DNA from: Minisyncoccota bacterium
GTDB taxonomy: Bacteria > Patescibacteriota > Minisyncoccia > Phycocordibacterales > UBA2100
Assembly (NCBI GenBank): GCA_022842645.1
Contig: JALHPE010000001.1
Location: forward strand, 71,711 to 135,710
Direction of reading: 5' to 3'
Length of the DNA: 64,000 nt
Every line of letters begins with the position of its first letter. Positions within the stretch are counted from its first letter, which is position 1. The position numbers and the translations under genes are program-made. A model generated the notes under the pieces. The model was not told where the DNA came from. It saw only the letters and a list, made by a program, of their open reading frames with translations, and made no database searches. Positions 6,050 to 59,018 of the stretch are shown piece by piece.

Positions 6050-6243
6050 AGTGAAAAAATGTCTTCGACTGGCACCTTAAAGATGCGCGCTATTTTTAAA
6101 GCAAGCAAGACCGAAGGTGTGTAATTCCCCTTCTCGATGGCGATAATCGTCTGGCGAGAGACACCCGCTTTCTCCGCAAGCTCCTCCTGTGTGAGAGCGC
6201 GATTGAGTCGCAATTTTTGGACAGTGTTTCTAATGATTTCCAT
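6046..6243 (-). CDS. XRE-family helix-turn-helix transcriptional regulator
   Basis: LTQEELAEKAGVSRQTIIAIEKGNYTPSVLLALKIARIF is a classic HTH_XRE. The start was moved to ATG 6241-6243 because the track begins at TTG. Confidence 0.75.
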   Translation of the reverse strand: MEIIRNTVQKLRLNRALTQEELAEKAGVSRQTIIAIEKGNYTPSVLLALKIARIFKVPVEDIFSL

Positions 6244-26205: not shown

Positions 26206-27195
26206 CTATCTCAAACGCTTCGTTCGAACGAGTTTCCAGTGTTCACCTGCACCAAAAAGAAGGAGGAGCACGACTGCCGCAAAGTGCGGCACATGCCCTG
26301 CAAGCTCAATTGGACCGAGCAAGAAGAGCGGTATGCTGAAGAACACCGCAACGACAAGTGCGTTTAAGCGGGTAACAATCCCGAGTATGAAGATGAGTCC
26401 GAAAAGCGCTTCAACGGAACCCGCAGAAAGTACGAAGAGGTAATCGCTATATCCAGTAAATCCGAGGTGCTGCATGAAATTCCAATCATATTGTTGAAGA
26501 AAATTGGCACCAAATTCAGGAGCGAGAATTTTTTCAGTAAATCCTAGAACGAGGAGTGTTGCGCCCGTGCCAAGCCGAAGAAGCGGAAGAGCATAGGAGT
26601 GATAGGGTTTTGCGAGATGTGCAAGAATACGTACTTTTACAATACTGAAATAGTCGTTCCCCATGATAAAAATGAATGCGGCACTTCCAAGTACCCAGAT
26701 GTCTTCGAGCATAGGCACGAGCCCAACCGCAAAAACACACAAGAGCCACAATCCCCCGAGAAGCAACGCACTCACGCGCGCGAAGATGCCGAGAAGAAAT
26801 GAGAGTCCGAGCACAAACTGAAAAATAATAAGAACTGGCGGGATGCCGTCTTGATGAGAGAGATTGGGCGAAAAAAGATAGTCGTGTGTCGCAGCGATCA
26901 TGAGGAATGAACCAACAACCATGGAGAAGGTTGAGGCCGCGCGCTCAAAAGCATGCGACGCCTTCGGTCGTAGGAAATTAAACTGAAATACCTGCTTGTG
27001 CTCGAGCCACACACCCACGGCGACAATGAATGCCGCTATAAGCGCCCACACGGTAAGATAGAGCGCGGTGGGTTCTGTTGTTGTAAGCGGCGCAAGCGAT
27101 CCGTGCGCAAACCAACGCGTGTGTGCGAACGCAAATCCTGGCAGTATAAGGACCGAGAGCGCGAACAAAAGACGCATGTGCCCATTCTCGCGCAT
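26206..27195 (-). CDS. Polytopic membrane protein of unknown function
   Basis: About 9 hydrophobic helices. ATG at 27193-27195, with an alternative at 27177. Confidence 0.5.
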   Translation of the reverse strand: MRENGHMRLLFALSVLILPGFAFAHTRWFAHGSLAPLTTTEPTALYLTVWALIAAFIVAVGVWLEHKQVFQFNFLRPKASHAFERAASTFSMVVGSFLMIAATHDYLFSPNLSHQDGIPPVLIIFQFVLGLSFLLGIFARVSALLLGGLWLLCVFAVGLVPMLEDIWVLGSAAFIFIMGNDYFSIVKVRILAHLAKPYHSYALPLLRLGTGATLLVLGFTEKILAPEFGANFLQQYDWNFMQHLGFTGYSDYLFVLSAGSVEALFGLIFILGIVTRLNALVVAVFFSIPLFLLGPIELAGHVPHFAAVVLLLLFGAGEHWKLVRTKRLR

Positions 27196-33064: not shown

Positions 33065-33697
33065 TTACTTCTTTCTCGCAATAAAATCAAAAATGTGCCA
33101 ATACTTCTCTCCCCCTCCTGCCAGACGATCTCGTCCCTTCACTTCATTAAAAATTATAATCTCGCATTCTTTCAGCAAATCCTGCGCGTGCTCCCGCGTA
33201 AGAAACGTCATAGTGCCTGAACCGTCATTCCATTCATCACTCATGCCGAAAAACTGACCTGTTATGATGCCGTCTTTCTTGAGAGAGCCTATGATTTTTG
33301 TGAATGTGGAGTCGAATGTTTCAGGTCGATTAAACGGAAGTGAGTACTGAGCATTCACGAGATCGTATGTATCTGGCTCAAAATCGAAATCTTCAAAATT
33401 ACTCACGCGATATGTAAATCTATCTTGCGGGAACGAAGTTGCCCGCTCGCGTACCACTGGATCGCTCTCCAAAGAATCTTTATTGACCGCAGTTACTGAG
33501 GCAAATCCCTGCTCGAGCAAGAACTTAGATTCGTTGAGTGCGCCAGGTCCGAGATCAAGAGCTGCACCTCTTTCTTCGACGTATTTCAACGCCTCAACCA
33601 AAAGTTCCCGTGGCGGTCGTTCTTTTGTCCGCTCGGAGTATCGTTTCCAAAGATTCTCCATCGCCCAAGCATACCCCTCACCCAGCACATAATCCAC
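33065..33697 (-). CDS. Class I SAM-dependent methyltransferase (TehB-like)
   Basis: Motif I-like ALDLGPGALNES. The start is GTG at 33697 or ATG at 33661. Confidence 0.55.
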   Translation of the reverse strand: MDYVLGEGYAWAMENLWKRYSERTKERPPRELLVEALKYVEERGAALDLGPGALNESKFLLEQGFASVTAVNKDSLESDPVVRERATSFPQDRFTYRVSNFEDFDFEPDTYDLVNAQYSLPFNRPETFDSTFTKIIGSLKKDGIITGQFFGMSDEWNDGSGTMTFLTREHAQDLLKECEIIIFNEVKGRDRLAGGGEKYWHIFDFIARKK

Positions 33698-33707
33698 CCC
33701 AAACCCC

Positions 33708-33739
33708 GAACGGCTAAAATAGCGCTATTTTAGCCGTTC
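33708..33739. promoter_or_regulatory. 32-nt perfect palindrome gaacggctaaaatagc|gctattttagccgttc, upstream of the methyltransferase gene
   Basis: Exact reverse-complement symmetry verified base by base. No flanking T-run, so it looks like an operator rather than a terminator. Confidence 0.5.
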
Positions 33740-34632: not shown

Positions 34633-34757
34633 CGCAGGAATTCCTTTCCCTTATTGAGACTAAGGCCACCCTATCACTTCGTGAACAGGAGAACAATTAC
34701 CAAAGATCGACCCCAGAAAAGCAAAACCCGGAGCACTTAGCCCCGGGTTTCATTGAT

Positions 34758-35312
34758 TTAAGACAGGTCTGGTACTCTGAATTCGTAAATCCAGTCGTGA
34801 GCCAGATAGTTAATGGCGCACCCCATGCGAGTGAGGTATTCATGCTCCGACGACGCGCCTGTCGATCGCTCCCAGCCCGGCAAAAACCACGCGCGAGCAA
34901 AGAGGCGCGACTCGAAGAGTGGTTGGTAGAATTCTGTGAGAATCGGGTGACAATAGCCGTTGCCGTTCACACCCTTCCACTCTGATTCCAAACGAGCTAG
35001 TTGAAACTCATACGGAATCTGATTGAACATCGGTCGCCCTTCTATGAGCAAGAGCTCGATTGCATGATTAAAGAGCAGCGTGTTGTAACCCGGGTGGCCG
35101 AATCCGCCGGTCGTGATGGGGCCGCACACGATTTCAGCCTTACCCTGCATGCCTCGAATTTGATCTTTCGCATGCAGAACTAAATCTTCGTACGTCATGT
35201 CTTTCCCGGCGAGGCCATGTTTCTCAGCCATCCGCCGCACGAAAATGGGTATTACTTTCGTATCCATGATGTTCTCCTTATCAACCACGGACAAGCATAC
35301 CCCTCCCCGCAC
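34758..35312 (-). CDS. Hypothetical protein
   Basis: 184-aa ORF. A Gly-rich CGPITTGGFG loop hints at a nucleotide-binding fold. Confidence 0.45.
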   Translation of the reverse strand: MRGGVCLSVVDKENIMDTKVIPIFVRRMAEKHGLAGKDMTYEDLVLHAKDQIRGMQGKAEIVCGPITTGGFGHPGYNTLLFNHAIELLLIEGRPMFNQIPYEFQLARLESEWKGVNGNGYCHPILTEFYQPLFESRLFARAWFLPGWERSTGASSEHEYLTRMGCAINYLAHDWIYEFRVPDLS

Positions 35313-35378: not shown

Positions 35379-36005
35379 CTACACAAGATAAATCGCAACT
35401 AAGGCGAGAGCCGCCATGCCGAAGTCCTCGATAAGCGTCACATAGGTGAGCGGAACTTTGAGGAATGTACCGAGGCACGCACACTGGAATTCTTCCCCTG
35501 TGGCGATTTTCAATGCGACGCCAACACCACTGAACGTCATGACAACAAACTCAGCCCAGAGAATCCCTACGCTATGGAATCCCGCAAGCATCACGAGCCC
35601 GAACGTAAGTTCAATAAAGGGATAGACGTACCCATACCCAAACCACCGCTGCGCCAGGAGATCGTACGTCGAGTATCCTTCTGCAAAACCCTTTAGATCC
35701 ATCAGCTTGAATCCGGCGAATATAAGAAAGAAGCCGGTCATGAAATAGAAGATGGTGTTCTCGATGAGAAACGTTCCGTGAGAAGCGTCGCGCCATGAGA
35801 GTGTCAGTGTGGCGATAAGAATAAGACCCACAACTACAATGAGCGGTGTGTAGTTGCGCCAGGTGATAGCACCAAGTCCGCGATCGGGCATGTGCGGTCG
35901 CGGCTTCGCCGCGACCGCCCCCTCCGCAACAAGCGCCATGCCGCACTTTGGACATCTCCCCAGCTCTTCTTGGCGTACTTCCGGATGCATCGGACACACG
36001 TACAT
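35379..36005 (-). CDS. Heavy-metal-binding domain (HMBD) fused to a MauE/DoxX-like membrane domain
   Basis: N-terminal YVCPMHPEV...GRCPKCGM, the metal-binding module found at CopA N-termini. It is followed by 4 helices and a CxC (FQCACLG). Confidence 0.65.
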   Translation of the reverse strand: MYVCPMHPEVRQEELGRCPKCGMALVAEGAVAAKPRPHMPDRGLGAITWRNYTPLIVVVGLILIATLTLSWRDASHGTFLIENTIFYFMTGFFLIFAGFKLMDLKGFAEGYSTYDLLAQRWFGYGYVYPFIELTFGLVMLAGFHSVGILWAEFVVMTFSGVGVALKIATGEEFQCACLGTFLKVPLTYVTLIEDFGMAALALVAIYLV

Positions 36006-36071
36006 GAAAAAAGTCTACCACGTACAAACGGCGGCTAGCGCCGCCGTTTGTCGCCCCTTTGTGCGCCCTCT

Positions 36072-36728
36072 CTAGTACCACGCTACGAGCCAGCTACGCA
36101 TCATCTCGATCTCGCGAGATTGCGAGGTAATGATGTTGTCGGCGAGCGTTTTCATCTCGTCGCGCTCCGTGGAAGCCGCGAGCATCGAGGCCATCATGAC
36201 CGCCATCTCGTGATGCGGAATCATTTGCTGGATGAAGACGCGATCGAATTCCGCGTCGGACGTCGCCTTGAGGTCGTCGAGGTCGCCTGTCATGCCGCCC
36301 ATATGCATCATGCCGCCTCCGCGACCACCCATCCCCATTCCCCCTTCGGGCGGCGCAGAACCGAACCACTCCTTATACCAGCTGGTCATGTCGTTGATCT
36401 CACGCGTCTGTGCTTCGATGATGTCGTTTGCAAGCGATAGCATCTCCGGACGCTTCGAACGCTCGAGTGCCATTTTCGCCATCTCGATTGCACCTTCATG
36501 ATGCGGAATCATCTGCACGATGAAATGCTGGTCAATGCTTTGACCCATCATGGTGCCGTCCGCCATCATGTGCCCGCGCTCTGCGCTACGCGGCTTCGAG
36601 CCATATGTGCTCTCTTCATTGGATTTGAGCGCATACCCGCCACCGAGACCAACGAGGAGCATAACGAGACCGACGATAAGTGTTTTCTGTTCCATAGTGA
36701 TGTACGTTACGTTGAATAAAAGAAACAT
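36072..36728 (-). CDS. Tandem DUF305-domain protein with a Gly/Met-rich linker
   Basis: Two copies of the IPHHEGAIEMA / IPHHEMAVMMA motif separated by GGMGMGGRGGGMMHMGGM. Confidence 0.75.
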   Translation of the reverse strand: MFLLFNVTYITMEQKTLIVGLVMLLVGLGGGYALKSNEESTYGSKPRSAERGHMMADGTMMGQSIDQHFIVQMIPHHEGAIEMAKMALERSKRPEMLSLANDIIEAQTREINDMTSWYKEWFGSAPPEGGMGMGGRGGGMMHMGGMTGDLDDLKATSDAEFDRVFIQQMIPHHEMAVMMASMLAASTERDEMKTLADNIITSQSREIEMMRSWLVAWY

Positions 36729-36734
36729 CAGTAC

Positions 36735-37115
36735 CTACGGATCTTTTCTATTATGAATACCGCGCGCGAATAACTCTTGAAAGAGCGTGGGGCGAAGTCG
36801 AAACACTGTATAGAGCCGGTACCGCACCTGCTCGTGCGCAAAAAGCGGAAGCGGTGCGCGAACAACAAAGAATACAAAACCAAGAAGGAGGATGACGCTG
36901 CTGAACGTCGACGCGAGCATCGTGTTCCAGAATGACGCATGTTCAACGACGGTGCTCGTGCACATCGTTTCGAAAACCATAAGGGGGCAGCCATGGTGAT
37001 GCGCAGGATGCAGCATGAGGAAATACAAACCGAGAAGGGCGACCATGAGAATCACAAACACCATCCCGAGCGCAACGATTCTTTGAGCCATAGAGCCAGC
37101 ATACTCCTCGCACAT
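36735..37115 (-). CDS. Small membrane protein with a His/Cys-rich segment (HPAHHHGCPLM)
   Basis: ORF with 2-3 helices. Its cluster context suggests metal binding. Confidence 0.4.
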   Translation of the reverse strand: MCEEYAGSMAQRIVALGMVFVILMVALLGLYFLMLHPAHHHGCPLMVFETMCTSTVVEHASFWNTMLASTFSSVILLLGFVFFVVRAPLPLFAHEQVRYRLYTVFRLRPTLFQELFARGIHNRKDP

Positions 37116-37172
37116 CCACGCGCAAGAAAAGCTCCACTGGCCACAATGGCGCCGATTTGGCCAGTCGGCTTT

Positions 37173-37574
37173 CTAGCGATAGCACGCAAGGAGCGAGGCA
37201 CCTTCGGTGAAGGTTGGTGTTGCGCCGCCTTGAATTTCTGCGAAACGGGCGGCGCCAAGTTTCTCTTGTGCACACGCGATCATAGCTGTAGTAATGGTTA
37301 TCGCATCTGCGTTAATCCCGAGCTTTGTGAGGAGTTCGCGCTGCCCTGCCGAGAGCTGTGTCGTAGGAACAGTGACTGGTTTTTCTTGTGCAGAAGCTGG
37401 TGTGTTAGTCATTTCTTCTTGACCAGCGTCACTGGCTTGCATCGGCACAAAGGATTCTTGAGCGGGAGTTGTCACGCGACTACCGAGCGCAAGATCGGCT
37501 AGAGGAAGGCGCCCCACATACACGCCAGCAGCGAAAGCGGCAAACATGAGAATAAGTATGAGAAATTTTTTCAC
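37173..37574 (-). CDS. Hypothetical secreted protein
   Basis: Signal peptide MKKFLILILMFAAFAAGVYVG. Confidence 0.45.
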   Translation of the reverse strand: MKKFLILILMFAAFAAGVYVGRLPLADLALGSRVTTPAQESFVPMQASDAGQEEMTNTPASAQEKPVTVPTTQLSAGQRELLTKLGINADAITITTAMIACAQEKLGAARFAEIQGGATPTFTEGASLLACYR

Positions 37575-37602
37575 AGTGTGTGCTTATTGAATAACGGCAC
37601 TC

Positions 37603-38346
37603 TTAGCGGAGCGAGAAGTCGGCACGCACCGTCACCATCACATCTTTCATGCGGCTTTGTGTGTCGTAGGAGCCGTAATCAGAGACATCAATACCACCTT
37701 GGGAGAGTACTTGTACGACTCCCGATGATGCGACACGCAATTCTCCCACCGATCGCCCACTCTCTTTTGCAATCGCTTCAGCGCGTTCGCGCGCGTCCTT
37801 GATAGCACCCGCGAGGAGCTTCACGCGGAGCTCAGGAAGTTTTTGATACGTAAGTTCAAGAGGACCAGATGAGAGTGTGTATCCCGTCCCCGTAAGCGAA
37901 CCCATGTCGTTCGCAAGCGCAGTGAGTTTTTCAATGTCGGCACTATGAATCATTATGGCGCGTGATGCGGAAACACCTGTCTGCACCGGCTCGCCTCCCT
38001 GCGGATAGTAATACGTAGCATTGACTGATGCGATTGGTGTTTCGATCTCGGTAAAGCCCTTGCCTCCGAGCGTGTCGCGGATGGTGGAAACCGCTTTCTC
38101 AAGACGATCGATGGCAATCTGTTCCTCTCCAATACCCGCCCTCGTATCGAGATTCAGACTCCAACGCCCAAAATCTGCTGTAACTGTTTCTTTTGCTGAA
38201 CCAGTCACGGTGATGGTGTCGTCGGCAACTTTAATTCCATATGCGACATATCCGGCAAGCAGCGCGCAGATAATGAATGCGCCGCCAAGGATGGTTGATC
38301 CTGCAACAAGTGGTTCTGTGTAATTGATGAGTCCCCGCATGTTCAT
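37603..38346 (-). CDS. SIMPL-domain (DUF541) periplasmic protein
   Basis: N-terminal anchor and SIMPL-family length and pattern (about 240 aa). Confidence 0.7.
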   Translation of the reverse strand: MNMRGLINYTEPLVAGSTILGGAFIICALLAGYVAYGIKVADDTITVTGSAKETVTADFGRWSLNLDTRAGIGEEQIAIDRLEKAVSTIRDTLGGKGFTEIETPIASVNATYYYPQGGEPVQTGVSASRAIMIHSADIEKLTALANDMGSLTGTGYTLSSGPLELTYQKLPELRVKLLAGAIKDARERAEAIAKESGRSVGELRVASSGVVQVLSQGGIDVSDYGSYDTQSRMKDVMVTVRADFSLR

Positions 38347-38473
38347 ACAACTAGTCTACTACCACATGAAAATGTCGCAAACCACCACACTTTGTGAAGA
38401 ACGTTCAACGTCCCTCGCTCCCTATAAAAGACCGCCTGGCATTTAACCGGCGGTCTTTGTCATTTCCACTACC

Positions 38474-38719
38474 TCAAACGTGCGCGCCTGCACGTGCAAT
38501 CCGCGCACGCGCACACGAAACCCAGAACTGCCGCTTATCGGGCGGACGTTCACTCCACAAACGAGGCGGTCTTTTTTCCCATCGCGCGACGACAGCTTCG
38601 CGAGCCTCGTACAGCCGCATCGCGAACACTTCAATACGTTTATTTTTGGGGACAGGAACTCGTGCGAGTGCCAACTGAATCTCGCATATTGCTTTTGGAT
38701 TGTGTAAGCACTTTATCAT
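38474..38719 (-). CDS. Hypothetical small Arg-rich protein (81 aa)
   Basis: ATG with an AAAGGG Shine-Dalgarno, and a hairpin (aagaccgcc/ggcggtctt) plus T-run immediately downstream. Confidence 0.35.
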   Translation of the reverse strand: MIKCLHNPKAICEIQLALARVPVPKNKRIEVFAMRLYEAREAVVARWEKRPPRLWSERPPDKRQFWVSCARARIARAGAHV

Positions 38720-38805
38720 CGTACACCCTTTCTGTTATGCCTACCGACAGCATACGACAACGACACCTGTTTCCAAAGTGAGACACTCGAGCATGTGTTC
38801 ACGAC

Positions 38806-39174
38806 TTAGAACCACGCCTCTAACCACCCACGCATAATCTCCACCTCGCCTGTCTGTGCAGAGATAATATTTTCTCCTAGCATCTTAAGTTCCGGACGCT
38901 GTGTGTTTGCAAGAAGTATCTCTGCCATCTCAATCGCACCTTCGTGATGCACAATCATGTCTTCAAGAAATACTTTATCGAGAGCATCGCCCGTCTTCCC
39001 TTGCATATTTGCTGTCATGCCCTGCATTGCGCCGTGCATAGTTGCATTTTGCATCACCGTGCCATCTGGCATCGTATGTATGCCCGTTTCGGGTGCAGGT
39101 GACGGGACAAAAGATGCGCCGAAGAAGCCAAGTGCGACCGAGACGAGTGCGATTCCAATCATTTTTATATCCAT
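38806..39174 (-). CDS. DUF305-domain secreted protein
   Basis: Signal peptide plus the MIVHHEGAIEMAEIL motif. Confidence 0.7.
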   Translation of the reverse strand: MDIKMIGIALVSVALGFFGASFVPSPAPETGIHTMPDGTVMQNATMHGAMQGMTANMQGKTGDALDKVFLEDMIVHHEGAIEMAEILLANTQRPELKMLGENIISAQTGEVEIMRGWLEAWF

Positions 39175-39177
39175 AAA

Positions 39178-39630
39178 TTAGTTAGTCCCAGCAGGAAGTG
39201 ATTCACACACGCGACCGTCTTTATCGCCGTCGAGCCGGAAGACGTCCATGTTTTTGCCAAGCTCGGAGCAGCGGCTGTAAACACTCATTGCTTCTGCTTG
39301 TGTTTTAAAATCAGAACAGTTGTAATCAATTTCTGCGGAATTACAGAATGAATCAACGTTAATAAGGTTTCCCCCTGCATCGCGCTGAATCTTGGCCGCG
39401 CTCATCGAGCCAGTCTCCCAGGCCTTTCCAAGATCGTAATCAGTATTCGCTACTTCCATGCCGAACGCGCCAAGAAGAAGCGCCATAGCAACGCCAAGCG
39501 CTGCTTTTGCCCAAGTTCCTTTGACGAAGAAGAAAAGAATGGCGACAAGTACGATAAGCCCACCAATAATCCACAGGCGCACCTTCTTGGATTCACGCCA
39601 CGAAGGTTGCTTTATAGAGTCGTTTTCCAT
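39178..39630 (-). CDS. Excalibur calcium-binding domain membrane-anchored protein
   Basis: The C-terminal DGDKDGRVCESLP matches the Excalibur DxDxDGxxCE motif. N-terminal helix. Confidence 0.7.
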   Translation of the reverse strand: MENDSIKQPSWRESKKVRLWIIGGLIVLVAILFFFVKGTWAKAALGVAMALLLGAFGMEVANTDYDLGKAWETGSMSAAKIQRDAGGNLINVDSFCNSAEIDYNCSDFKTQAEAMSVYSRCSELGKNMDVFRLDGDKDGRVCESLPAGTN

Positions 39631-39694
39631 ACCAGGATTTTAGCATGGGGCTGGAGGGGCGCTAGCGCCCCTCCAGCCTCCCTGTATACTTATT

Positions 39695-40171
39695 ATGTAC
39701 ATTATTAATACTATCAATAACGCATACATCTACATGAATATGCTGAATTGCAATTGTGGAAGCGGCTGGAGCGAATACGCACACCTCTTTCTCCGCGTCG
39801 TTTTGGGTCTCGTCTTCTTTATGCACGGCTGGCAGAAAGTGTTTGAAACCGGCATTCCTGGAGTCACTGGCTTTCTTGGAAGCCTGGGCTTCCCTGCACC
39901 AACCTTATTCGCCTACATCCTCGCCTACGGCGAACTCGTCTTTGGCGCGATGATGATCATCGGCCTTCTCACGCACTGGGCAGCGAAGTACCACATCATC
40001 GTTGCACTCGTGGCACTCTTAGCAGTACATGCAGGAAATGGCTTCTTCGTCTCAACCGGCGGTTATGAGTTCATTCTGCTCATCCTCGCGGTTTCCATCG
40101 CAATCTTCGCTATGGGTCCTGGCAAGTATTCAGTGGACGCAAAGTGGGGCAAGGGTCAAGGCGCAATGTAG
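39695..40171 (+). CDS. DoxX-family membrane protein
   Basis: LFLRVVLGLVFFMHGWQK resembles the DoxX signature, with 4 helices. The start may be an internal Met at about 39734. Confidence 0.7.
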   Translation: MYIINTINNAYIYMNMLNCNCGSGWSEYAHLFLRVVLGLVFFMHGWQKVFETGIPGVTGFLGSLGFPAPTLFAYILAYGELVFGAMMIIGLLTHWAAKYHIIVALVALLAVHAGNGFFVSTGGYEFILLILAVSIAIFAMGPGKYSVDAKWGKGQGAM

Positions 40172-40174
40172 TCT

Positions 40175-40723
40175 ATGCAGAATTTCCTCGTTGCGCTCGT
40201 TCTTGTACTTCTCGCTGGTGGTGGGTATTACTTATATACGGCACCGGAACCAACGCCGTCCAACACTGAGAGGGATCGTTCCTCAAATAGCATGCCAACA
40301 GGCATGATGGAGGACGGTACAGAACCCGTAGCACCGACCAATCCTTCGCCGACACCACGTGGTGTTGTTGAAATCGAAACGGATGCGAGCGCTTCTGCAG
40401 GAACGGGCGTTCCGAGCACAGGCGCAAGTGCAACAGCAGAAGCGACACTCAAAGAGATTACCGTCACATCTACTGGTATGGCGTTTAATCAGAAAACACT
40501 CGCCGTAAAGAAGGGCGACCGTGTGCGCATTACCTACACCAACGGTGGTGGCACACACGACCTCCGCATCGAAGGCTACAATGTTGGCACGAAGGTCATG
40601 CAAGGTGGCGTTTCGGAAACATTCGAATTCGTCGCGGACAAAGCGGGTACCTTTGAGTACTACTGCTCAGTAGGAAGTCATCGCCAGGCTGGCATGAAAG
40701 GGACCTTAACGGTCACAGAGTAA
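40175..40723 (+). CDS. Cupredoxin (plastocyanin/amicyanin-like blue copper protein), membrane anchored
   Basis: Type-1 copper ligands: His in GGTHD, then Cys, His and Met in YYCSVGSHRQAGMKG. Located 3 nt after the DoxX gene. Confidence 0.75.
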   Translation: MQNFLVALVLVLLAGGGYYLYTAPEPTPSNTERDRSSNSMPTGMMEDGTEPVAPTNPSPTPRGVVEIETDASASAGTGVPSTGASATAEATLKEITVTSTGMAFNQKTLAVKKGDRVRITYTNGGGTHDLRIEGYNVGTKVMQGGVSETFEFVADKAGTFEYYCSVGSHRQAGMKGTLTVTE

Positions 40724-40775
40724 AATAACTCACGCATAAAGATTGAAGCACCGAGTGATCGGTGCTTCTTTCTTT

Positions 40776-41096
40776 TTAGTGGAGCGGGACTATCTCCAAC
40801 TCCCCATCCATAGCGTGGCTAAGAACTGCTTTCCGCGTGTCAGTGACTGCAATGAGCGTACCATCCGCAGCATGAAGTGAGAAAAGATTCCCTGTCTTAG
40901 GAAGACCCTCCACCATGGGAAACATAGTTTGCGCCTGCTTCGGGGTAAGCACTTTGACGTAACCCACTTCCCCCCTACCCAAGCGCGATAGTTCCAATTC
41001 ACTTATACCAGGACTACTCATGTTCGCCTCCTTGGCTCGAGCTAATCCTTGTATCAGACTAGCAACCCCCATAAAACGCGCAAGCATGTTGTGCAA
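40776..41096 (-). CDS. Hypothetical small protein
   Basis: ORF only. The start may be the internal Met MSSPGISELE. Confidence 0.35.
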   Translation of the reverse strand: MHNMLARFMGVASLIQGLARAKEANMSSPGISELELSRLGRGEVGYVKVLTPKQAQTMFPMVEGLPKTGNLFSLHAADGTLIAVTDTRKAVLSHAMDGELEIVPLH

Positions 41097-41134: not shown

Positions 41135-41797
41135 ATGCACCCCCTCATTCTGATCCTCACACTCATTCTACTTGCCACACCATTCGTATTTCCCCAGACA
41201 CCACTTGAGCCAAGTACGTCAGTGCAAGAGATTGCCGTGGTACAGGAAGAAAAACCCGCCGAACTACCGCAAGGAGCGATTGCTGACGAACCAAAACCGA
41301 TTGCAAAAACAGCACGTCCTTTGCCTCCCCCACCGCCGAAGAAAGAGTCGGTGCAAACCAAACCCACATTCCCTCCAGGTGACTCGCTCTCATTCCTACT
41401 TGAAGAAAAGATTCTTGTTTTCACAAACACCGAACGCTCACGCCGCAATCTCCAAACACTCGAACCAAATACCGTTCTTGCCAGTACCGCGCGAATGCAT
41501 AGCGCGGACATGCTCGCACGCGATTATTTTGAGCATGAAAACCCTGATGGCTGCTCATCTTCTTGTCGCGCAACAAACGCAGGATATGCATGGCGCATGA
41601 TTGGAGAAAATCTCTATATGCTCGAAGGCTTTGATTTCTCCACAGACGAAACCGCAGCGATGATAGTTTCCGGCTGGATGGAATCTCCCGGGCATCGCGC
41701 AAATATTTTAAAAGAAGGCTACACGGAAACCGGCGTTGGGGTGATTGTGAAAGGAAGTGCAATCTACGCCACCGTCCTCTACGCCACCCCACGCTAA
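41135..41797 (+). CDS. CAP/SCP/PR1-like domain secreted protein
   Basis: Signal peptide, a Pro-rich linker, and a CAP domain (TNTERS...HSADML..DYFEH...GEN...GHRANIL). Confidence 0.75.
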   Translation: MHPLILILTLILLATPFVFPQTPLEPSTSVQEIAVVQEEKPAELPQGAIADEPKPIAKTARPLPPPPPKKESVQTKPTFPPGDSLSFLLEEKILVFTNTERSRRNLQTLEPNTVLASTARMHSADMLARDYFEHENPDGCSSSCRATNAGYAWRMIGENLYMLEGFDFSTDETAAMIVSGWMESPGHRANILKEGYTETGVGVIVKGSAIYATVLYATPR

Positions 41798-41800
41798 CCC

Positions 41801-41825
41801 ATGTGGGACTTCGTAAGTCCCACAT
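41801..41825. repeat. REP-like palindrome, family A copy 2 (atgtgggact tcgta agtcccacat), inverted relative to copy 1
   Basis: Read from the sequence. It sits between two convergent genes. Confidence 0.7.
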
Positions 41826-42736
41826 CAAGAACCACGGAGTATAGTGTCGCTGATGGTGCCTACTTTTTTGCGGAGGAAGTCTGTCGCGGCCTCGAAGGTG
41901 ACGGTTGCAAGATCATCGTTCGGATCTGCTGCCTTGTAGGCTGTTTGGATCGCTTCATCAATTTCCTCTGCAAGGTTTGCGCGGGAGAAAAACGTACGAA
42001 GGAACCAGCGATACCACGGAAGCTTCACCGAGACACGCTCTTCGAGAGTTGGCGCGGCGGGAATGATGGAGACGCGCACTGGGAACGACCACGGGAGAAA
42101 GCCCAGTAGATAACCACGCGAACGATACACAATATCGACGCGCGTTGCGGAAAGTGTTGCTTCTTCAAAGTTGGAATCGCGCACAGCTGTTGAAGCGGCG
42201 ATGAGTCCGCGCTCGCGCGCCGAGGCGCCATTTCCTCTCTTCCAAAACGTCAGAAACTCTGAGAATGTGCTATTTTCCCTGAAGATATCGCGCACACGAG
42301 ACGCAACAATGCGCACGAATCCTCCCTCGAAATCAATACCGCCGGAACCGAGGACACCTCCCTCTCCAAACGAACCAAAGAGCGCGCCGCCAGTCAGAAG
42401 CGCGTTCCACACCGTCTCTTCGCTGGCAGCACCTGAGCCTGAATTAGAACCTGCGCCTGAACCGCTTCCGGTTCCCTGCGAGCTACCTGGATTCGTACCC
42501 GGCGTAGTCGTTGGCGTTGATGTGGGTGTCGAAGCGCCACTACCTACACCCGTGCCAGAACCTCCAGAAGAACCTGAGCCACCTCCGCCAGTATTCACTC
42601 CCCCCACCCATCCCGGTGGTTCCGGCGGCTCGCCATCTCCCACTTCAATCGTTTCGGTGTTGTTATAAAAAATCGCATGCGCGGAGAGTGGCAGGATGCA
42701 CAGTACAAAAAGAAACGCGAATATCCCCTTTCGCAT
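41825..42736 (-). CDS. Secreted protein with a Gly/Ser/Thr-rich low-complexity region
   Basis: Signal peptide MRKGIFAFLFVLCILPLSAHA, about 100 aa of G/S/T/P repeats, and a C-terminal globular part. Confidence 0.5.
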   Translation of the reverse strand: MRKGIFAFLFVLCILPLSAHAIFYNNTETIEVGDGEPPEPPGWVGGVNTGGGGSGSSGGSGTGVGSGASTPTSTPTTTPGTNPGSSQGTGSGSGAGSNSGSGAASEETVWNALLTGGALFGSFGEGGVLGSGGIDFEGGFVRIVASRVRDIFRENSTFSEFLTFWKRGNGASARERGLIAASTAVRDSNFEEATLSATRVDIVYRSRGYLLGFLPWSFPVRVSIIPAAPTLEERVSVKLPWYRWFLRTFFSRANLAEEIDEAIQTAYKAADPNDDLATVTFEAATDFLRKKVGTISDTILRGS

Positions 42737-53907: not shown

Positions 53908-56358
53908 TTATTTCTTTGCTTTCTCCAGCTTTAACTTCCCACATTGGCACTCTATGGACTCTTTGCTTCTGTGATACTCAACAAATTGGTGGCAGTCTTT
54001 GCACCATAATTCGTTCTCCAATTTGAACCATTCTTCTGCCGCTCGCTTTATTTCCGCTGGAGCAATTGAGGTGCCGCTGTTAGTTCTTGCGTGGGATACA
54101 AAGTTACGCATAATCGGCTCATACTTTTTTGCTTCTTGAATCTGTTGAACAGCTGCGTGTCCTTTTGCTTTATCGTTGAGTCGTGCGTACAGCGCATCAA
54201 AAAGCTCCTCCATCGAAGGCGGGTCATTCTTTGTGTAACGATAACGAACTGCCGCCCAAAGCCCCTCGCAGAGTTCGTTTAGAGTGCTCTCTACATAACG
54301 CCCCAGTTTCCACCCTGCATCCTCAATCCTAGTAGAGTCTTTCAGACACTCTTCAATCTCTTCTTGAGTGGTAGCAGCGACATCAATCACAGCGCCTGTC
54401 TCATAGCCCCAGCTTTTAATTTTCTTAGGTATCCACTTCGGGAATCGGCGAACAATTTTCTGGAACCAATAATAATCGTGTGTGAAAAGTATTATCTGAT
54501 AATCGCTAAACTCCTGCTCAATCAAATCGAGCAGAGTGTCTCGCTTGTCTATATCGAGACTGTTCATTATGTCGTCAAGAACTATGAACTTGCAGCTATC
54601 GTTGAACTGTTTGATGCAGGTGAAGTAAACCGCCAAGCCCAGGCTGTTGAGTAGTGATTCACTCAAGACCTTGTACGCAGGTTTAACTGTTACATCGTAG
54701 TAATGCAGCTGTATTTCTGCGGAACGCCCAGCTGCTCGTCCTTTCTCTTCGTTGAGAACAATCTCAATGTTCTTAATGTCTTTATCATTTCTCAAAATGG
54801 AAAAGTATTTGCCAATCCTTTCTGAAATTTCATTGAAGCGCGACTTTATATTTTCTTGAATGAGAGTGATGAGCTTGTTGCTTACCGCAGCAAAAGCAGT
54901 GATTTCTTTTTCCGTGAATTGAGATTCAGCTTCCGTATCCCGTATTTCAATTAGCTTCACCCTAATTTGGGTAAGTTTTTCTATATCCTCTGCCAACTTC
55001 AAGTCCCTCTCTGAAGGCTGAATCTTCGTCTTTTCGGAAGTGATGGTTTTTAGAACTTCTTTCTGTTCCGCTTCTACCTGTTCGATGAGTTCCTTTGTGA
55101 GAGCAATTTCGGTTGTAGCACCAAGTGGCTTAGCAAGCCAGCCGCTTTCAAGTCCAGAGAGAATTTCCTTGTAGGCTTTGGTCTTTTCGTAAGTGAGAGC
55201 AGGTATTATTTTTTGCACATCGTCATACTTTGATAGCAACCTCTCTATGGTGCCCGCTTCCTGTCTCACAACTGATTTCAAAGTGTTAATTACTTTCTCT
55301 ATGGCTTCTTTGTCCTCCTTAACTTTCGTGAGTAAGTTCAATTCGTCTTGAATATGCTTGACCAGCTCATCTCTTTCCCAAGATGTGCCGCAAACGGGAC
55401 AGGTAGTGCTGGTTTCCGTCTGTTTATTCAAAACCTCTAGCGCTTGGTCATACAGACCAATGACATCAATCTGTTCTATTCGTTTTAGCTCTTTGTTGAA
55501 GTCGTCTAATTGCTTCTTTGCGTCAACGAGCGAACCAAGCAGCGTATTGCTTACAGTAAATAATCCGATACTGGTTTCAGCTTGAGTAAGCTTGTCTATG
55601 GTGATGCCCACAGATGATGTGGCACGCAATTTTGCGAACTCTGGAATGTAGGCGAGAAGACCCTCGATACTTTTCTGTTCAGCAATCTTGTGAGCGGTCA
55701 GTACGCCGTTACAGATACGTAGGATTTCTATGTCGGATGTATCTTGGCTACCCGTAAGCTTGAATAGATGCTGTTCAAGCGCCTTTACAGTGGCAGCAAG
55801 CTCATCCTTCTTTCGCTTTAACTCTGGGAGAATTTTAAGGGCAAGTTTTTCCTGGAACGACAGCTCACTTTCAAAACCCATCCAGTTTGCAAGTCGTTGG
55901 TATTTTTTCAGTCCCGTCTGATTGTAAACAAAGTCTATTACCTCCAAGTAACGAAGGTATGGCTTAATTACGAATGCTTTGTAAACATTCTCAAAGTCAT
56001 CATCAGAAGACAGAGATGGCTGCGTAATCTTTTTGTGATTGTAGGTTTTGCGCAGCGTATCAAGTTTCTTTTCAGAATCGTCGAACTGCAACTCAACAAA
56101 ACTTTCGTCTTTGTCTGGGTCAACTGCCAAGTGTGGGTACGCTTTTTCTTCAGCATCCTCTCTTGTGAGCCATTCAACTTTGTTATCTTCAGACAAGAAC
56201 CATTCGACACCATCAACAAAAGAAGTTTTGCCAGAACTATTTAACCCATAGAGAACGAGTGAGCGCGGTTTTTTATCATCCTTTGCTGTAAGGAGTAAGT
56301 CCTGTGGCTTGAGAATGCCCCTGAAACCGCTAAGCGTTATTTTTCTTACTTTCAGCAT
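53908..56358 (-). CDS. rloC: RloC-like anticodon nuclease: Rad50/SbcC-like ABC ATPase with a coiled-coil zinc hook and a C-terminal PrrC-like tRNase domain
   Basis: Walker A GLNSSGKTS, a long coiled-coil with CPVC at its centre, Walker B FIVLDD, and H-loop LFTHD. The C-terminal roughly 200 aa carry KLGRYVESTLNEL and NFVSHARTNSG, matching the PrrC/RloC nuclease motifs. It sits next to the restriction-modification genes. Confidence 0.7.
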   Translation of the reverse strand: MLKVRKITLSGFRGILKPQDLLLTAKDDKKPRSLVLYGLNSSGKTSFVDGVEWFLSEDNKVEWLTREDAEEKAYPHLAVDPDKDESFVELQFDDSEKKLDTLRKTYNHKKITQPSLSSDDDFENVYKAFVIKPYLRYLEVIDFVYNQTGLKKYQRLANWMGFESELSFQEKLALKILPELKRKKDELAATVKALEQHLFKLTGSQDTSDIEILRICNGVLTAHKIAEQKSIEGLLAYIPEFAKLRATSSVGITIDKLTQAETSIGLFTVSNTLLGSLVDAKKQLDDFNKELKRIEQIDVIGLYDQALEVLNKQTETSTTCPVCGTSWERDELVKHIQDELNLLTKVKEDKEAIEKVINTLKSVVRQEAGTIERLLSKYDDVQKIIPALTYEKTKAYKEILSGLESGWLAKPLGATTEIALTKELIEQVEAEQKEVLKTITSEKTKIQPSERDLKLAEDIEKLTQIRVKLIEIRDTEAESQFTEKEITAFAAVSNKLITLIQENIKSRFNEISERIGKYFSILRNDKDIKNIEIVLNEEKGRAAGRSAEIQLHYYDVTVKPAYKVLSESLLNSLGLAVYFTCIKQFNDSCKFIVLDDIMNSLDIDKRDTLLDLIEQEFSDYQIILFTHDYYWFQKIVRRFPKWIPKKIKSWGYETGAVIDVAATTQEEIEECLKDSTRIEDAGWKLGRYVESTLNELCEGLWAAVRYRYTKNDPPSMEELFDALYARLNDKAKGHAAVQQIQEAKKYEPIMRNFVSHARTNSGTSIAPAEIKRAAEEWFKLENELWCKDCHQFVEYHRSKESIECQCGKLKLEKAKK

Positions 56359-56512
56359 ATCGTTTTTTTATGAGATTCAGTATCTTACCAGCGGTGTCTT
56401 TGCCATCTTCATTTGTCGCATTGGAATCAGACAACAACTGAATGAACGCTGCATCCAGTTCTTTGTCTTTCTTCATTTCCTCAAGATGAGTTTTTATGAT
56501 GTCGCTGCTCAT
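56330..56512 (-). CDS. Small hypothetical ORF between hsdMS and rloC
   Basis: 60-aa ORF from ATG 56512 that overlaps the rloC start by 29 nt. Coding status is uncertain. Confidence 0.25.
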   Translation of the reverse strand: MSSDIIKTHLEEMKKDKELDAAFIQLLSDSNATNEDGKDTAGKILNLIKKRYAESKKNNA

Positions 56513-56516
56513 ATAT

Positions 56517-59015
56517 TTATTCGCCCCAAACCTCGGCGATTTTGGATTTAATCTTTTCCTCAAACAACGCCACAATTGCTTTCGTAGCTTCAATTTGTTG
56601 CTGCTCTTCTTTGAGCTTCGCTATTACCTCGCGCTGGACTTCCAACGACGGTAACGGGATTTTGAAGCCCTTTACCTGGTCAGTGGTGAGATTCTTGAAC
56701 ACTGCGCCGATTGATAGCGAGTGGTTGACTACTTTCTGGTAGAACAGCACATAGTAGAAAAACTCTGGCAATATATCTTTTGAAAGTTCTCTGAACCCAA
56801 CCCAACCGTCGTGAATACACGCATCAACTTTTAGTATTGATGGTAAGCCAGGATTGCCGCTCACTGCCATTACCACTTCTCCTTTCTTCATTGGTCTACT
56901 CAACTTTGCGCCCTCTTCGGTGAGAAAATCTGTCTCTGGCATAACATACATTCCGTCTCTGGTTACATCGGAAATCATTAGGCGGGGAACTTTACCGCCA
57001 TAGTAACGAGAGTCTCCCTGGGGTCGTGGCGAACTACCGCGAACCAATTTACAGATACTATCTACATCAACGGTTTTCCAGCTCGCGTCAATCTTTATGA
57101 GGGGTTTGTAGTTGGTAACAATTTGCTTTGCACCATCAATAACTTTCTGATAATTACCCAGCTCTGTAACAAATTGCTCTTGTATCTCCAGGGGCGGGAG
57201 AGGAATGGAGAAAGAATAGAAACCATCAACTTTCAAATGCTTAACATTCGCTCCATTAGAAAAATTAACAATATAGTCTCGGTATTTCTTAGACCTTAAG
57301 AGATAGTAAAGGTAGGTCGTATTCAAACGGGAATCCTTTAAGACAATTCTTCCGAGGTCGGCGGAATGTGCTGCGCGTATGGATTCAGTAATAATTTTAG
57401 GTGCACCAATAATTTCCGAAGTTGGTGTTAGGTCAGTGAGAGCTATCAGAACATCTCCCGTCTTAACAAGAAATTTCTCTTTAACACCGCCAGTAAAATA
57501 CTTGAATCCGTGGTCAAATAAATCGCCATTTCTCTTAATAGATTTTAAGTTATAGAGAGGAACTCCCGCCTCTGTTTCGCTTATTTCTTTACTGGAGTAT
57601 GAAATACCGCGCTGAACCTCACATAACTCACCCAGCTTTACAACATCCCATCGTTGATTGCTTTGCAACGCGGCAACTTTATAGCTTTCTCCAGAGAGAT
57701 TGTAGTCTCCACTTGCTTCAATCTTCGACTTGGGCACTGCCCAGGCAAACAAGCTACCTTTCTTAACGAGAGAGTTTTTAGTACCTGCTTTAACGGCGGC
57801 GCGTTGTTCGTGCAAAACTTCTACGGCGTGAGGAAGGTCGTTTCTATCTACTGGTCTTCGCTGTGCTCCAAGTTCAAACCCATCATTGAGGACTTTCACA
57901 AATAATATTTCCTTTGATTGTTTTGCAATCTGATTATCAAAAAAGAGAATACTGGTTTTTACACCAGAGTAAGGACTAAAGACTCCAGCGGGTAAAGAAA
58001 CAACTGCATAAAGTCCGTCTTCAACAAGAATTTTACGAAGTTGTTTGTAGGCGTTTGATGCGGTGAAAATAATTCCCTCGGGCACGATGATACCCGCACG
58101 CCCCTTGTTGTTAAGATGCTCGGTAATGTAATCAACGAAAAGAACCTCGGAGCGGTTAGCATCTACTGTAAAACGCTTGTGTGGACGGATACCGCCCTTC
58201 GGGGTCATAAAAGGCGGATTCGCCATCATTACATCAAAGCGCTCATCCCATTTCTCTTCGCTCGTCAGGGTGTCATATTCGTGGATGTTTGGGCTTGGAA
58301 AGCCGTGCAGATACATATTCACCAGGGAGAGCTTCACCATATCTGGAGAAATGTCGTACCCCGAAAGGTTGCCCATTAAGCGCTTCTTTTCGTCGGGAGT
58401 TAGCGGCTTATTCTTGTTCGATTTGAGAATGTGTTTATAGGCTGAAATAAGAAAGCCTGCTGTGCCACACGCGGGGTCGAGTATCGTTTCGTCTTTCTTT
58501 GGGTCAACAACCTCAACAATAAAATCAATGATGTGTCGGGGTGTTCTAAATTGTCCCGCATCACCTTGAGAGCCGAGCACAGAAAGCAGATACTCAAACG
58601 CATCACCAAGATTCTCGCTATGGTCGTATGCAAAACTGTTTATCTCTTTCAAAAAGAGATTGAGTGTTTCGGGGTCGCGGTATGGCAAAAAAGCATCTTT
58701 GAAAATGTCGCGGAAGAGTTGCGGAAGATGCGGATTCTTCGACATCTTTGCAATGGCTTCAACATAGAGATTTAGACGCTCCTGTCCACCAAGCTTTGCA
58801 TCCATCATCTTGCCCCACGCATACTTTTCAAAACCATTCGTGAAAAACTGCGCCTTACCCTTTGGCAAAGAAGCCGCCTGCTTATCCATATCGTCCATAA
58901 ACTTGTAGATAAGAGCGGTGGTAATTTGCTCTACCTGCGCTTTTGGGTCAGGAACTTTACCAACCAAAATGTCCCGCGCCGAGTCAATCTTCTTTTTTAT
59001 TTCGGGGGTAAGCAT
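56517..59015 (-). CDS. hsdMS: Type I restriction-modification fused methyltransferase-specificity subunit (HsdM N-terminal and N6-adenine methylase domains plus two HsdS target-recognition domains)
   Basis: HsdM_N region, motif I DPACGTAGFL, and motif IV NPPF in the first roughly 430 aa. These are followed by two target-recognition repeats with the conserved PLPPLEIQ / PLPSLEVQ motifs. Confidence 0.85.
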   Translation of the reverse strand: MLTPEIKKKIDSARDILVGKVPDPKAQVEQITTALIYKFMDDMDKQAASLPKGKAQFFTNGFEKYAWGKMMDAKLGGQERLNLYVEAIAKMSKNPHLPQLFRDIFKDAFLPYRDPETLNLFLKEINSFAYDHSENLGDAFEYLLSVLGSQGDAGQFRTPRHIIDFIVEVVDPKKDETILDPACGTAGFLISAYKHILKSNKNKPLTPDEKKRLMGNLSGYDISPDMVKLSLVNMYLHGFPSPNIHEYDTLTSEEKWDERFDVMMANPPFMTPKGGIRPHKRFTVDANRSEVLFVDYITEHLNNKGRAGIIVPEGIIFTASNAYKQLRKILVEDGLYAVVSLPAGVFSPYSGVKTSILFFDNQIAKQSKEILFVKVLNDGFELGAQRRPVDRNDLPHAVEVLHEQRAAVKAGTKNSLVKKGSLFAWAVPKSKIEASGDYNLSGESYKVAALQSNQRWDVVKLGELCEVQRGISYSSKEISETEAGVPLYNLKSIKRNGDLFDHGFKYFTGGVKEKFLVKTGDVLIALTDLTPTSEIIGAPKIITESIRAAHSADLGRIVLKDSRLNTTYLYYLLRSKKYRDYIVNFSNGANVKHLKVDGFYSFSIPLPPLEIQEQFVTELGNYQKVIDGAKQIVTNYKPLIKIDASWKTVDVDSICKLVRGSSPRPQGDSRYYGGKVPRLMISDVTRDGMYVMPETDFLTEEGAKLSRPMKKGEVVMAVSGNPGLPSILKVDACIHDGWVGFRELSKDILPEFFYYVLFYQKVVNHSLSIGAVFKNLTTDQVKGFKIPLPSLEVQREVIAKLKEEQQQIEATKAIVALFEEKIKSKIAEVWGE

Positions 59016-59018
59016 AGA

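Follow-up and report, generated by a model that had tools for sequence, protein, structure and literature searches.

The region described here lies in a 64,000-nucleotide stretch of DNA from a Minisyncoccota bacterium (GenBank assembly GCA_022842645.1, contig JALHPE010000001.1, positions 71,711 to 135,710 of the forward strand), hereafter the window, which is 64 kb of a 408,474-bp NCBI contig; all statements on genes present in or absent from this genome cover the window alone. Nine open reading frames (ORFs), g1 to g9, were found between positions 35379 and 40723. An earlier reading of these letters (the original prediction) had taken them for an uncharacterised envelope module for Cu(I) handling or electron transfer that lacks the copper pump CopA and a multicopper oxidase. 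Families were assigned with Pfam and NCBIfam profile scans against each model's own cutoff, and these upheld the predicted gene content and most of its labels, namely HMBD-MauE, DUF305, SIMPL, DoxX and cupredoxin, the exception being Excalibur for g7. Each of the nine proteins carries either an anchor at its N-terminus or several transmembrane helices. Five of them (g1, g2, g3, g6 and g9) are copper-linked, and all five fall within about 10 of the roughly 69 ORFs of the window (hypergeometric P ~2e-5, a rough value as it depends on a greedy ORF count), so that their clustering is non-random. Pfam scans covering the larger ORFs of the 64 kb turned up neither a P-type ATPase nor a multicopper oxidase, NirK or CsoR, and tblastn with Patescibacterial CopA and CsoR queries gave no match (best E = 0.34). 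The absence of a P-type ATPase and a multicopper oxidase that had been noted within the cluster extends over the whole window, which also has no CopZ and no DsbA-like gene.

The third gene, g3 (36735..37091, minus strand, with the ORF continuing to 37115), encodes a His/Cys-rich protein of 118 amino acids (aa) with two transmembrane helices. Its extracytoplasmic loop has the form H-H-H-G-C-P-L-M-x6-C-x6-H and it ends in a conserved C-terminal tail, RPTLFQELFARGIHNRKDP. A homologue search based on a word index returned just two relatives, and an exhaustive HMMER search returned a family of 186 representative clusters, nearly all of 115-130 aa. No Pfam or NCBIfam model was found for either the protein or the family. 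The family signature consists of the first transmembrane helix, H-x-G-C-P-[LF]-x7-8-C-x4-5-L-E-H-x3-W-Q, the second helix and the tail RPTLxQELFSxGILNRKxP, and C35, C44, H51 and G111 are invariant in the alignment. The AlphaFold2 model (predicted local distance difference test score, pLDDT, 76) is a two-helix hairpin, and both termini carry positive charges, from which the Cys/Cys/His loop is predicted to face outwards.

Neighbourhoods were compared across loci of relatives, which are given L-numbers here, and copper genes adjoin the g3 family in every one that could be read. In L023 an HMBD-CopA gene is followed by a 72-aa ORF, a g3-like gene and a half-length DUF305 gene, and in L134 the order is CsoR, DUF302, SHOCT, HMBD-CopA and a g3-like gene overlapping the end of CopA by 4 nt. 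The L135/L136 operon runs from CsoR and DUF2933 through further genes to a terminal P-type ATPase, and is divergent from a g3-like gene with a tandem DUF305 gene. A g3-like gene followed by DUF305 was also found in L132, L133 and L137, in L008, where the pair lies beside a homologue of g1, and in L087, where the DUF305 is half-length and the pair is convergent with a DoxX gene 67% identical to g8. The operons of L010, L134 and L135/L136 are preceded by canonical CsoR operators (ATACCCC-N3-5-GGGGTAT). As the two Cys and the His of the loop are invariant and the gene holds a fixed position after CopA or before CopM-like genes in relatives, g3 may bind or relay copper at the membrane surface between CopA and CopM. 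The family and its constant association with CopA and CopM appear to be new here, and the family is a candidate for a part of copper export or sequestration that has not been described before.

Two genes of the cluster encode relatives of the copper-binding protein CopM. The product of g2 (36072..36728, minus strand) is a membrane-anchored homologue that covers the whole DUF305 model (1-151 of 151) and has two repeats; it scores 111.1 bits in two stretches against the NCBIfam CopM model (NF049983, cutoff 90). It also matches the Synechocystis CopM structures 5ffa and 5fej, with E = 5.9e-42 for 5ffa (query 43-218 against chain 31-202). This alignment runs end to end through both repeats and the Gly/Met linker, MIPHH is kept in both repeats, and Met makes up 12% of the protein. 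The tandem DUF305 protein with a Gly/Met linker noted in the original prediction is not unusual; Synechocystis CopM carries the same linker, and because g2 aligns with it end to end, linker included, the arrangement is standard CopM architecture. The second relative, g6 (38806..39174, minus strand), is a membrane-anchored, single-repeat protein with a half-length DUF305 domain and a Met-rich N-terminal segment. It aligns with either CopM repeat, and at 68.1 bits it falls below the NCBIfam family cutoff of 90.

In Synechocystis sp. PCC 6803 CopM is periplasmic and extracellular, binds Cu(I) with a dissociation constant of ~3e-16 and alone confers copper resistance (PMC4335983). By analogy, g2 and g6 would bind Cu(I). 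The likeness of g2 extends to both repeats, the linker, the M-x-P-H-H motifs and export or anchoring, with g6 matching one repeat. Unlike CopM, g2 has an N-terminal anchor that looks uncleaved (its host probably has just one membrane), and it is not beside a CopRS two-component system or an RND pump, while g6 is half-length and below the family cutoff.

The protein encoded by g1 (35379..36005, minus strand, 208 aa) is a fusion of an HMBD domain (PF19335, 47.9 bits against a cutoff of 23.6) to a MauE domain (PF07291, 45.7 bits against 27, covering model positions 7-127 of 128). A metal-binding ribbon of Cys and His at the N-terminus is followed by a disordered linker, an extra transmembrane helix and the four-helix MauE core. 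The HMBD has the motif C-P-M-H-P...C-P-x-C-G-M, which also forms the N-terminus of CopA in L023 and L134. More than 1,800 homologues have the same two-domain architecture at 60-75% identity. The public call of this gene (P0001, 186 aa, in NCBI and Logan) starts at Met23, 22 codons late, and so misses the HMBD; the longer ORF opens with an ATG at 36005, and more than 100 homologues conserve the whole HMBD. The late start of the public call is also the reason why an exact look-up of the full-length protein gave no match.

In the AlphaFold2 model of g1 (pLDDT 84) the extra helix spans residues 49-75 and the core helices 81-102, 122-140, 146-169 and 187-207; a total of five helices puts HMBD and CXC loop on the same membrane face. 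C175-A-C177, in the loop that joins core helices 3 and 4, is invariant in both alignments (22 and 46 sequences), as are L178 and G179 in the family, and a Phe stands at +4 (F181). E132 and E193-D194 are invariant within the helices. K100 (core helix 1) and E132 (core helix 2) are both invariant and, by their helices, are candidates for the conserved Lys and Glu of the MauE references H1XRV2 and B8FLW7. Foldseek found no PDB structure similar to the model at E < 1, and to our knowledge no MauE or DoxX structure has been solved. MauE has been reported to replace DsbB in Escherichia coli. Its active site is a CXC in the periplasmic loop that connects helix 3 to helix 4, the consensus is C-[GA]-C-F-G, and a Lys and a Glu are conserved as well; the main text of that preprint deals with neither copper nor Patescibacteria, and groups fusions as thioredoxin-type or other (bioRxiv 10.64898/2026.03.05.709764). 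Like that enzyme, g1 has the four-helix core, and the CXC in loop 3-4 with a small central residue and a Gly at +2, and it has a Lys in helix 1 and a Glu in helix 2 that may correspond to the conserved pair; unlike that enzyme, g1 carries an extra N-terminal helix and the HMBD.

The surroundings of g1 homologues were examined in 17 full-length cases from reference genomes. Within 7 kb, DUF305 was found at three loci in addition to the window, CopA, recognised as a P1B ATPase with a CPH motif, at 4/17, CsoR at three, a DsbA-like gene at 4/17, and a pair of CcdA and TlpA-like genes at two. The order in L010 is CsoR, CopA, HMBD/MauE and two DUF305 genes. In a census of three genes on each side (88 proteins, 108 families) the commonest families were DUF305 (4) and CsoR (3), followed by DsbA-type proteins (2). 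The gene thus appears mostly stand-alone, its sole recurrent links being to copper and thiol-disulfide genes. The nine-gene cluster was present around 0/17 of these homologues.

These links raise the alternative that the locus serves oxidative protein folding, in which g1 would be the equivalent of DsbB, g3 (two Cys), g4 (two) and g7 (four) its clients, and the copper proteins incidental. It would fit the replacement of DsbB by MauE through a CXC that g1 keeps together with a Lys in helix 1 and a Glu in helix 2, the DsbA-like genes and CcdA/TlpA pairs near some homologues (4/17 and 2/17), and the abundance of the g1 family at 60-75% identity, as expected for a housekeeping gene; g4 and g7 in particular may be clients of a disulfide-forming system. 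It leaves unexplained, however, why a copper-type domain (HMBD or, as described below, HMA) is fused to MauE in two phyla, and why DUF305 and CsoR are the commonest neighbours of g1. Furthermore, the window has no DsbA-like gene. The g3 family, found in CopA/CopM operons, has an invariant His alongside its invariant Cys residues, and this speaks for a metal site rather than a structural disulfide. This alternative is considered unlikely.

A second type of fusion was found in a Bacteroidota locus (L021), in which an HMA domain with the motif GMTCSNC is linked to the same MauE core (38% identity, 'KCACLG') by an extra helix equivalent to that of g1. This HMA-MauE gene lies between an AraC regulator and a gene for a secreted protein with six HMBD repeats plus an RND/OEP efflux system; the HMA domain has no signal peptide and the 6xHMBD protein has one. 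As two unrelated copper-type domains are fused to the MauE core, the core function probably involves a soft metal. The link that the very abundant HMBD-MauE and HMA-MauE fusions would make between a newly characterised family of disulfide-forming enzymes and soft-metal binding appears to be new.

Three further observations concern these neighbourhoods. Between the HMA-MauE and 6xHMBD genes of L021 (10852-11250) is a gene for a 132-aa Cys/His-rich protein ('HMHYCMGE...CGKCGM...CCSHE') with no Pfam match. Three Patescibacterial loci (L010 5317-5760, L005 9003-9539 and L011 9451-9999) have, next to CsoR, g1 or DUF305, a gene for a secreted His-rich protein of 147-182 aa ('...HFHPQLEIY...HNPIHTHED...') from a family that is unannotated and absent from the window. 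The window also has, on the minus strand, a TlpA-like redoxin with a Thioredoxin_10 domain (3111-4178), a CcdA/DsbD-type membrane protein (4187-4900) and an XRE-type helix-turn-helix protein (6049-6240); the three are 47-61% identical to a trio that lies a few genes from the g1 homologue of L010, and are here 30 kb from g1.

The last two genes, on the plus strand, are g8 (39695..40171, alternative start 39734), a DoxX-family membrane protein (Pfam DoxX, 71.8 bits), and g9 (40175..40723), a membrane-anchored type-1 (blue) cupredoxin (Pfam Copper-bind, 37 bits against 21.2); the spacing of 3 nt given for them originally is correct. A C-N-C motif just before the first helix of g8 is kept only in its closest DoxX relatives (67-75% identity, L086-L088) and is missing from more distant ones; the relatives that bear it include the one beside a g3-like gene and DUF305. 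There is also a weak match to the DoxD subunit of thiosulfate:quinone oxidoreductase. Like BufD/HvfX of the bufferin clusters and gig operons, g8 is a DoxX-family protein beside copper-related genes; unlike in the bufferin clusters, no MNIO, DUF2063 or precursor-peptide genes are near it. An assignment to HvfX/BufD was rejected, as the match to NCBIfam NF050144 is sub-threshold (57.9 bits against a cutoff of 80) and those partner genes are lacking from the cluster. In the bufferin system itself, the DoxX protein BufD is dispensable for copper protection (PMC11626156). A second DoxX-domain protein in the window (26206-27195, minus strand, 329 aa, DoxX at residues 205-288) adjoins an ABC-2 transporter pair.

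The copper ligands of g9 (H128, C164, H169 and M174) are invariant in 32 family members, and the protein is anchored through a helix at its N-terminus and a long Pro/Thr/Ser linker that includes a short patch rich in Met. Among solved structures it is closest to 2dv6 (E = 2e-15) and 6tfd, in the tethered cupredoxin domains that act as electron donors in three-domain NirK. It shares with the N-terminal domain of 2dv6 the ligand set H...C-x4-H-x4-M and the motif YYCS-x3-HRQAGM-x-G; unlike three-domain NirK, it is free-standing and membrane-anchored, and the window has no NirK. An identity with CopI was rejected (NCBIfam NF051440, 42.2 bits against a cutoff of 280). Rather than a resistance protein, g9 is predicted to be a lineage-conserved blue-copper electron carrier.

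Single-domain cupredoxins ('pcy') of Patescibacteriota have been proposed as electron donors to NirK, with the link from quinol to pcy left unidentified (PMC12931201). On this basis g8 and g9, with or without g1, could form an electron chain in which a quinol-interacting DoxX passes electrons to the blue-copper protein and fills this gap in NirK-bearing Patescibacteria. The NirK donor domains nearest to g9, its four invariant ligands, the weak DoxD match of g8 and a spacing that suggests co-translation would all agree with such a chain. The pair is not conserved, however: a cupredoxin was found beside DoxX at 0/45 loci of g8 homologues, and DoxX beside a cupredoxin at 0/4 loci of g9 homologues. 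The pairing is therefore specific to this population and not the conserved operon that it had been taken for. Together with the absence of NirK from the window and the dispensability of DoxX in the bufferin system, this makes an electron chain very unlikely.

Where a source is named, homologues of g1 and g9 come from Patescibacteria (Minisyncoccota, Andersenbacteria, Kaiserbacteria and Paceibacterota). The genes of the window were also found on Logan contigs, all from one sample series (SRR28154519-31), and an identical g9 is present on nine of these with the same gene arrangement in all nine. Four relatives (L082-L085) have the cupredoxin in a backbone of the order (BipA ...) DUF1150, cupredoxin, CAP, ..., YdjM, with no adjoining DoxX. 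Their BipA is 85-92% identical to that of the window, with 85% for L085, a Paceibacterota metagenome-assembled genome, and 92% for L082, where the match is partial. The number of genes from BipA to the cupredoxin is 3 in L085, 11 in L082 and 13 in the window. As the gene count varies among relatives and the cupredoxin synteny is kept, g1 to g8 can be assigned to a variable slot between the conserved BipA gene and the conserved cupredoxin-CAP-YdjM backbone, of which g9 is a member. The slot of L082 includes a tandem DUF305 gene 64% identical to g2, so that CopM occurs in the slot of two of the three genomes compared. The DUF1150 gene (40776-41096, minus strand) is downstream of and convergent with g9 in the window, and upstream and divergent in L082-L085, which indicates a local rearrangement accompanying the apparent insertion of DoxX. 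A mobile genomic island was considered and rejected, as scans of the window found no tRNA and no integrase or recombinase, and the GC content (0.50-0.54) is like that of the flanks.

Three transcription units are predicted from hairpins or terminators and intergenic distances: g7-g6, then g5-g4-g3-g2-g1 with a downstream gene of 184 aa, and g8-g9. Gaps inside units are 3-66 nt. The g7-g6 unit would end at a hairpin in the 460-bp gap between g6 and g5 (38427..38458, minus strand, 10-bp arms and a 12-nt loop, then TTTTAT), the second at a terminator 3' of the 184-aa gene, downstream of g1 (34722-34752), and the third at a strong bidirectional terminator hairpin (40738..40775) common to g9 and the convergent DUF1150 gene. 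Between g2 and g1 is a GC-rich hairpin (36024..36051, minus strand, 12-bp arms, 4-nt loop) which may be an internal attenuator or an RNA-stability element. The 64-bp divergent region between g7 and g8 contains a perfect 30-bp palindrome, GGCTGGAGGGGCGCT followed by AGCGCCCCTCCAGCC (39649..39678), which is a candidate operator; a CsoR box was ruled out as its identity. It shares the core GCGCTAGC with the g2-g1 hairpin. A scan for sigma-70 promoters found fewer sites than in shuffled sequence, and is hence uninformative for this organism.

Other structures of this kind were seen nearby. A further perfect GC-rich palindrome or hairpin lies at 35894-35918, and a perfect 32-bp palindrome, GAACGGCTAAAATAGC followed by GCTATTTTAGCCGTTC (33708-33739), lies just upstream of the start of a methyltransferase gene (33065-33697, minus strand). 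Independent Logan assemblies of the same population break at palindromes (L142/L143 start at ~39646-39665 and L139/L141 at ~35905-35914), probably an assembler artefact at palindromic k-mers. The gap between g6 and g5 (38347-38805) has no convincing gene, and an 81-aa ORF called there by one pipeline (38474-38719, minus strand) has no Pfam match in the precomputed annotation.

The arrangement into units bears on the idea of a self-contained envelope module, independent of CopA, in which the nine genes would work together to handle Cu(I) or to transfer electrons. Five genes are copper-linked, all nine products are placed in the envelope, neither CopA, a multicopper oxidase nor CsoR is within 64 kb, and the genes are tightly packed inside units; to this extent the idea of a copper-related envelope locus holds. 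The coherence of the module does not. The genes fall into three predicted units with terminators between them, and none of the 66 loci compared (17 around g1, 4 around g9 and 45 around g8 homologues) has the nine-gene order. The arrangement is found in one population only; what recurs elsewhere are the sub-pairs g3 + DUF305, g1 + DUF305 and g1 + CsoR/CopA. In addition, g9 belongs to the backbone, and SIMPL, g4 and g7 never recur with copper genes, apart from a possible weak case in L132. The lack of CopA, which had been put forward as a feature of the system, is not one, as the same families adjoin CsoR and CopA in other Patescibacteria. A cooperating module of nine genes is accordingly held to be quite unlikely; the cluster is not a new self-contained copper machine and consists mostly of known families.

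The reading preferred here, to which a probability of roughly 0.6 is given, is that g1, g2, g3 and g6 are the accessory extracytoplasmic half of a CsoR/CopA copper-tolerance system common in Patescibacteria, gathered in a variable slot. The region is a slot of this type in a Paceibacteria/Kaiserbacteria-like chromosome that has accumulated envelope genes. Cu(I) at the outer face of the membrane would come from outside or be pumped there by a CopA encoded elsewhere, given that none is within the 64 kb. It would be captured on the Met and His sites of the membrane-tethered g2 and g6, which are homologous to CopM, and the outward Cys-Cys-His loop of g3 would act between CopA and these proteins. 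With its catalytic motif, and with the HMBD and CXC on the same face, g1 could be a MauE-type thiol oxidoreductase that keeps exported Cys proteins oxidised under copper stress, or else a copper sensor or handler. The blue-copper carrier g9 would stand apart, with DoxX (g8) put directly upstream of it in this population only, and g4, g5, g7 and the 184-aa gene would be co-located envelope proteins outside copper handling.

Two known systems are comparable. The CsoR-CopA (copZA-type) operons of relatives have the g1, g2/g6 and g3 families inside or beside them (L010, L023, L134 and L135), whereas the window has no CsoR, CopA, CopZ or CsoR box. Copper stress is paired with envelope thiol-disulfide enzymes in the Scs system (PMC10907172, PMC8900818). 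The likeness to Scs of Salmonella, Proteus and Caulobacter is that copper tolerance is conferred via envelope thiol-disulfide oxidoreductases, some of them Cu(I)-binding, and that the g1 homologues of L010 and L004 are a few genes from CcdA/DsbD-like and TlpA-like genes. Unlike Scs, the cluster has no homologues of ScsA, ScsB, ScsC or ScsD, the CcdA/TlpA pair of the window is 30 kb away, and MauE is an oxidant-side enzyme where ScsB is on the reductant side.

Several points weigh against the preferred reading. The CsoR operator pattern TACCC-N1-9-GGGTA has no match in the 64 kb, and with no CsoR box, CsoR or CopA gene in the window, copper regulation of the cluster is only conjectural. Most g1 homologues are in unrelated contexts, as the 108 families among 88 neighbours indicate, and g1 may be a housekeeping gene whose presence in the cluster is partly coincidental. 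Its CXC is not followed directly by Phe-Gly, the sequence being C-A-C-L-G with Leu in place of the Phe typical of MauE, and the indications of its orientation conflict. A census of Lys plus Arg (9.5 against 0.4) puts the HMBD/CXC face inside, as does the occurrence of the same HMBD at the cytoplasmic N-terminus of CopA in L023 and L134, and these loop charges argue for an orientation opposite to that of MauE, homology to which puts the CXC outside.

This conflict suggests the further alternative that g1 and the relatives fused to HMA transport or relay a soft metal and are not oxidoreductases; a cytoplasmic domain would then hand Cu(I) to the membrane CXC in the manner of MerP/MerT or the CPC of CopA. 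The charge census, the shared CopA domain, the Bacteroidota HMA domain without a signal peptide and the invariant acidic residues within the helices (E193-D194 and E132) could all be accommodated. The CXC of characterised MauE is however outside and acts on DsbA, HMBD repeats can be periplasmic, as the signal peptide of the 6xHMBD protein indicates, and no member of the MauE/DoxX superfamily is a known transporter. Such a role is therefore given only a very slight chance.

A more far-reaching proposal joins copper and folding. Most Patescibacteria are thought to be without a respiratory quinone pool. HMBD-MauE could then be a general disulfide-forming enzyme of Patescibacteria that uses copper in place of quinone, with g3 a universal partner of CopA and CopM, and the electron acceptor may be the metal ribbon on the CXC face or a nearby membrane-anchored blue-copper protein. 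This is speculative and regarded as improbable; if true, it would amount to a copper-dependent oxidative-folding pathway and explain the co-localised copper and thiol-disulfide genes.

Patescibacteria, whose genomes are minimal, account for a large part of the diversity of bacteria, and we know of no experimental study of copper homeostasis or disulfide-bond formation in them. The present analysis narrows a "copper island" to two testable items, the g3 family and the HMBD-MauE (or HMA-MauE) fusion, whose metal-binding domain is missed by the public annotation of the g1 gene. If the ordinary reading as an accessory half of a CsoR/CopA system holds, the practical gain is better annotation of thousands of metagenomic genes.

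The best-supported reading of g4, g5, g7 and the 184-aa gene is that they are bystanders. The anchored or secreted g4 protein (37173..37574, minus strand, 133 aa, two Cys) has no Pfam or NCBIfam match and no detectable relatives. The first gene of its unit, g5 (37603..38346, minus strand), encodes a SIMPL/DUF541 protein (78 bits) with an N-terminal anchor; searches of PDB sequences found no relatives of solved structure for g4 or g5, and nothing relevant was found in the literature on a link between SIMPL/DUF541 and copper. The product of g7 (39178..39630, minus strand) is membrane-anchored with a four-Cys C-terminal domain, and Excalibur was rejected as a firm label because the match to PF05901 (18.8 bits) is below the gathering score of 22. 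No copper link was found for SIMPL, g4 or g7, nor any recurrence with copper genes at the loci examined; the possible exception in L132 is a weak Excalibur-like gene ~2 kb from the g3-DUF305 pair. The 184-aa gene (34758..35312, minus strand), which lies downstream of g1 and before the terminator, has a weak DUF4406 match and no copper link, and is probably co-transcribed with the g5-to-g1 unit.

An Rfam search of 33-42 kb gave nothing above noise; a fluoride riboswitch match at 41796-41869 (plus strand) is sub-threshold (17 bits, E = 0.57; gathering score 34) and probably due to chance. Further along the window (53908-61535) is a type I restriction-modification system, made of an 832-aa fused M/S subunit and an 838-aa R subunit, together with an 816-aa SMC/AAA_21 ATPase. 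The GC content of this segment is 0.42-0.46 compared to ~0.51, and its horizontal acquisition is probable.

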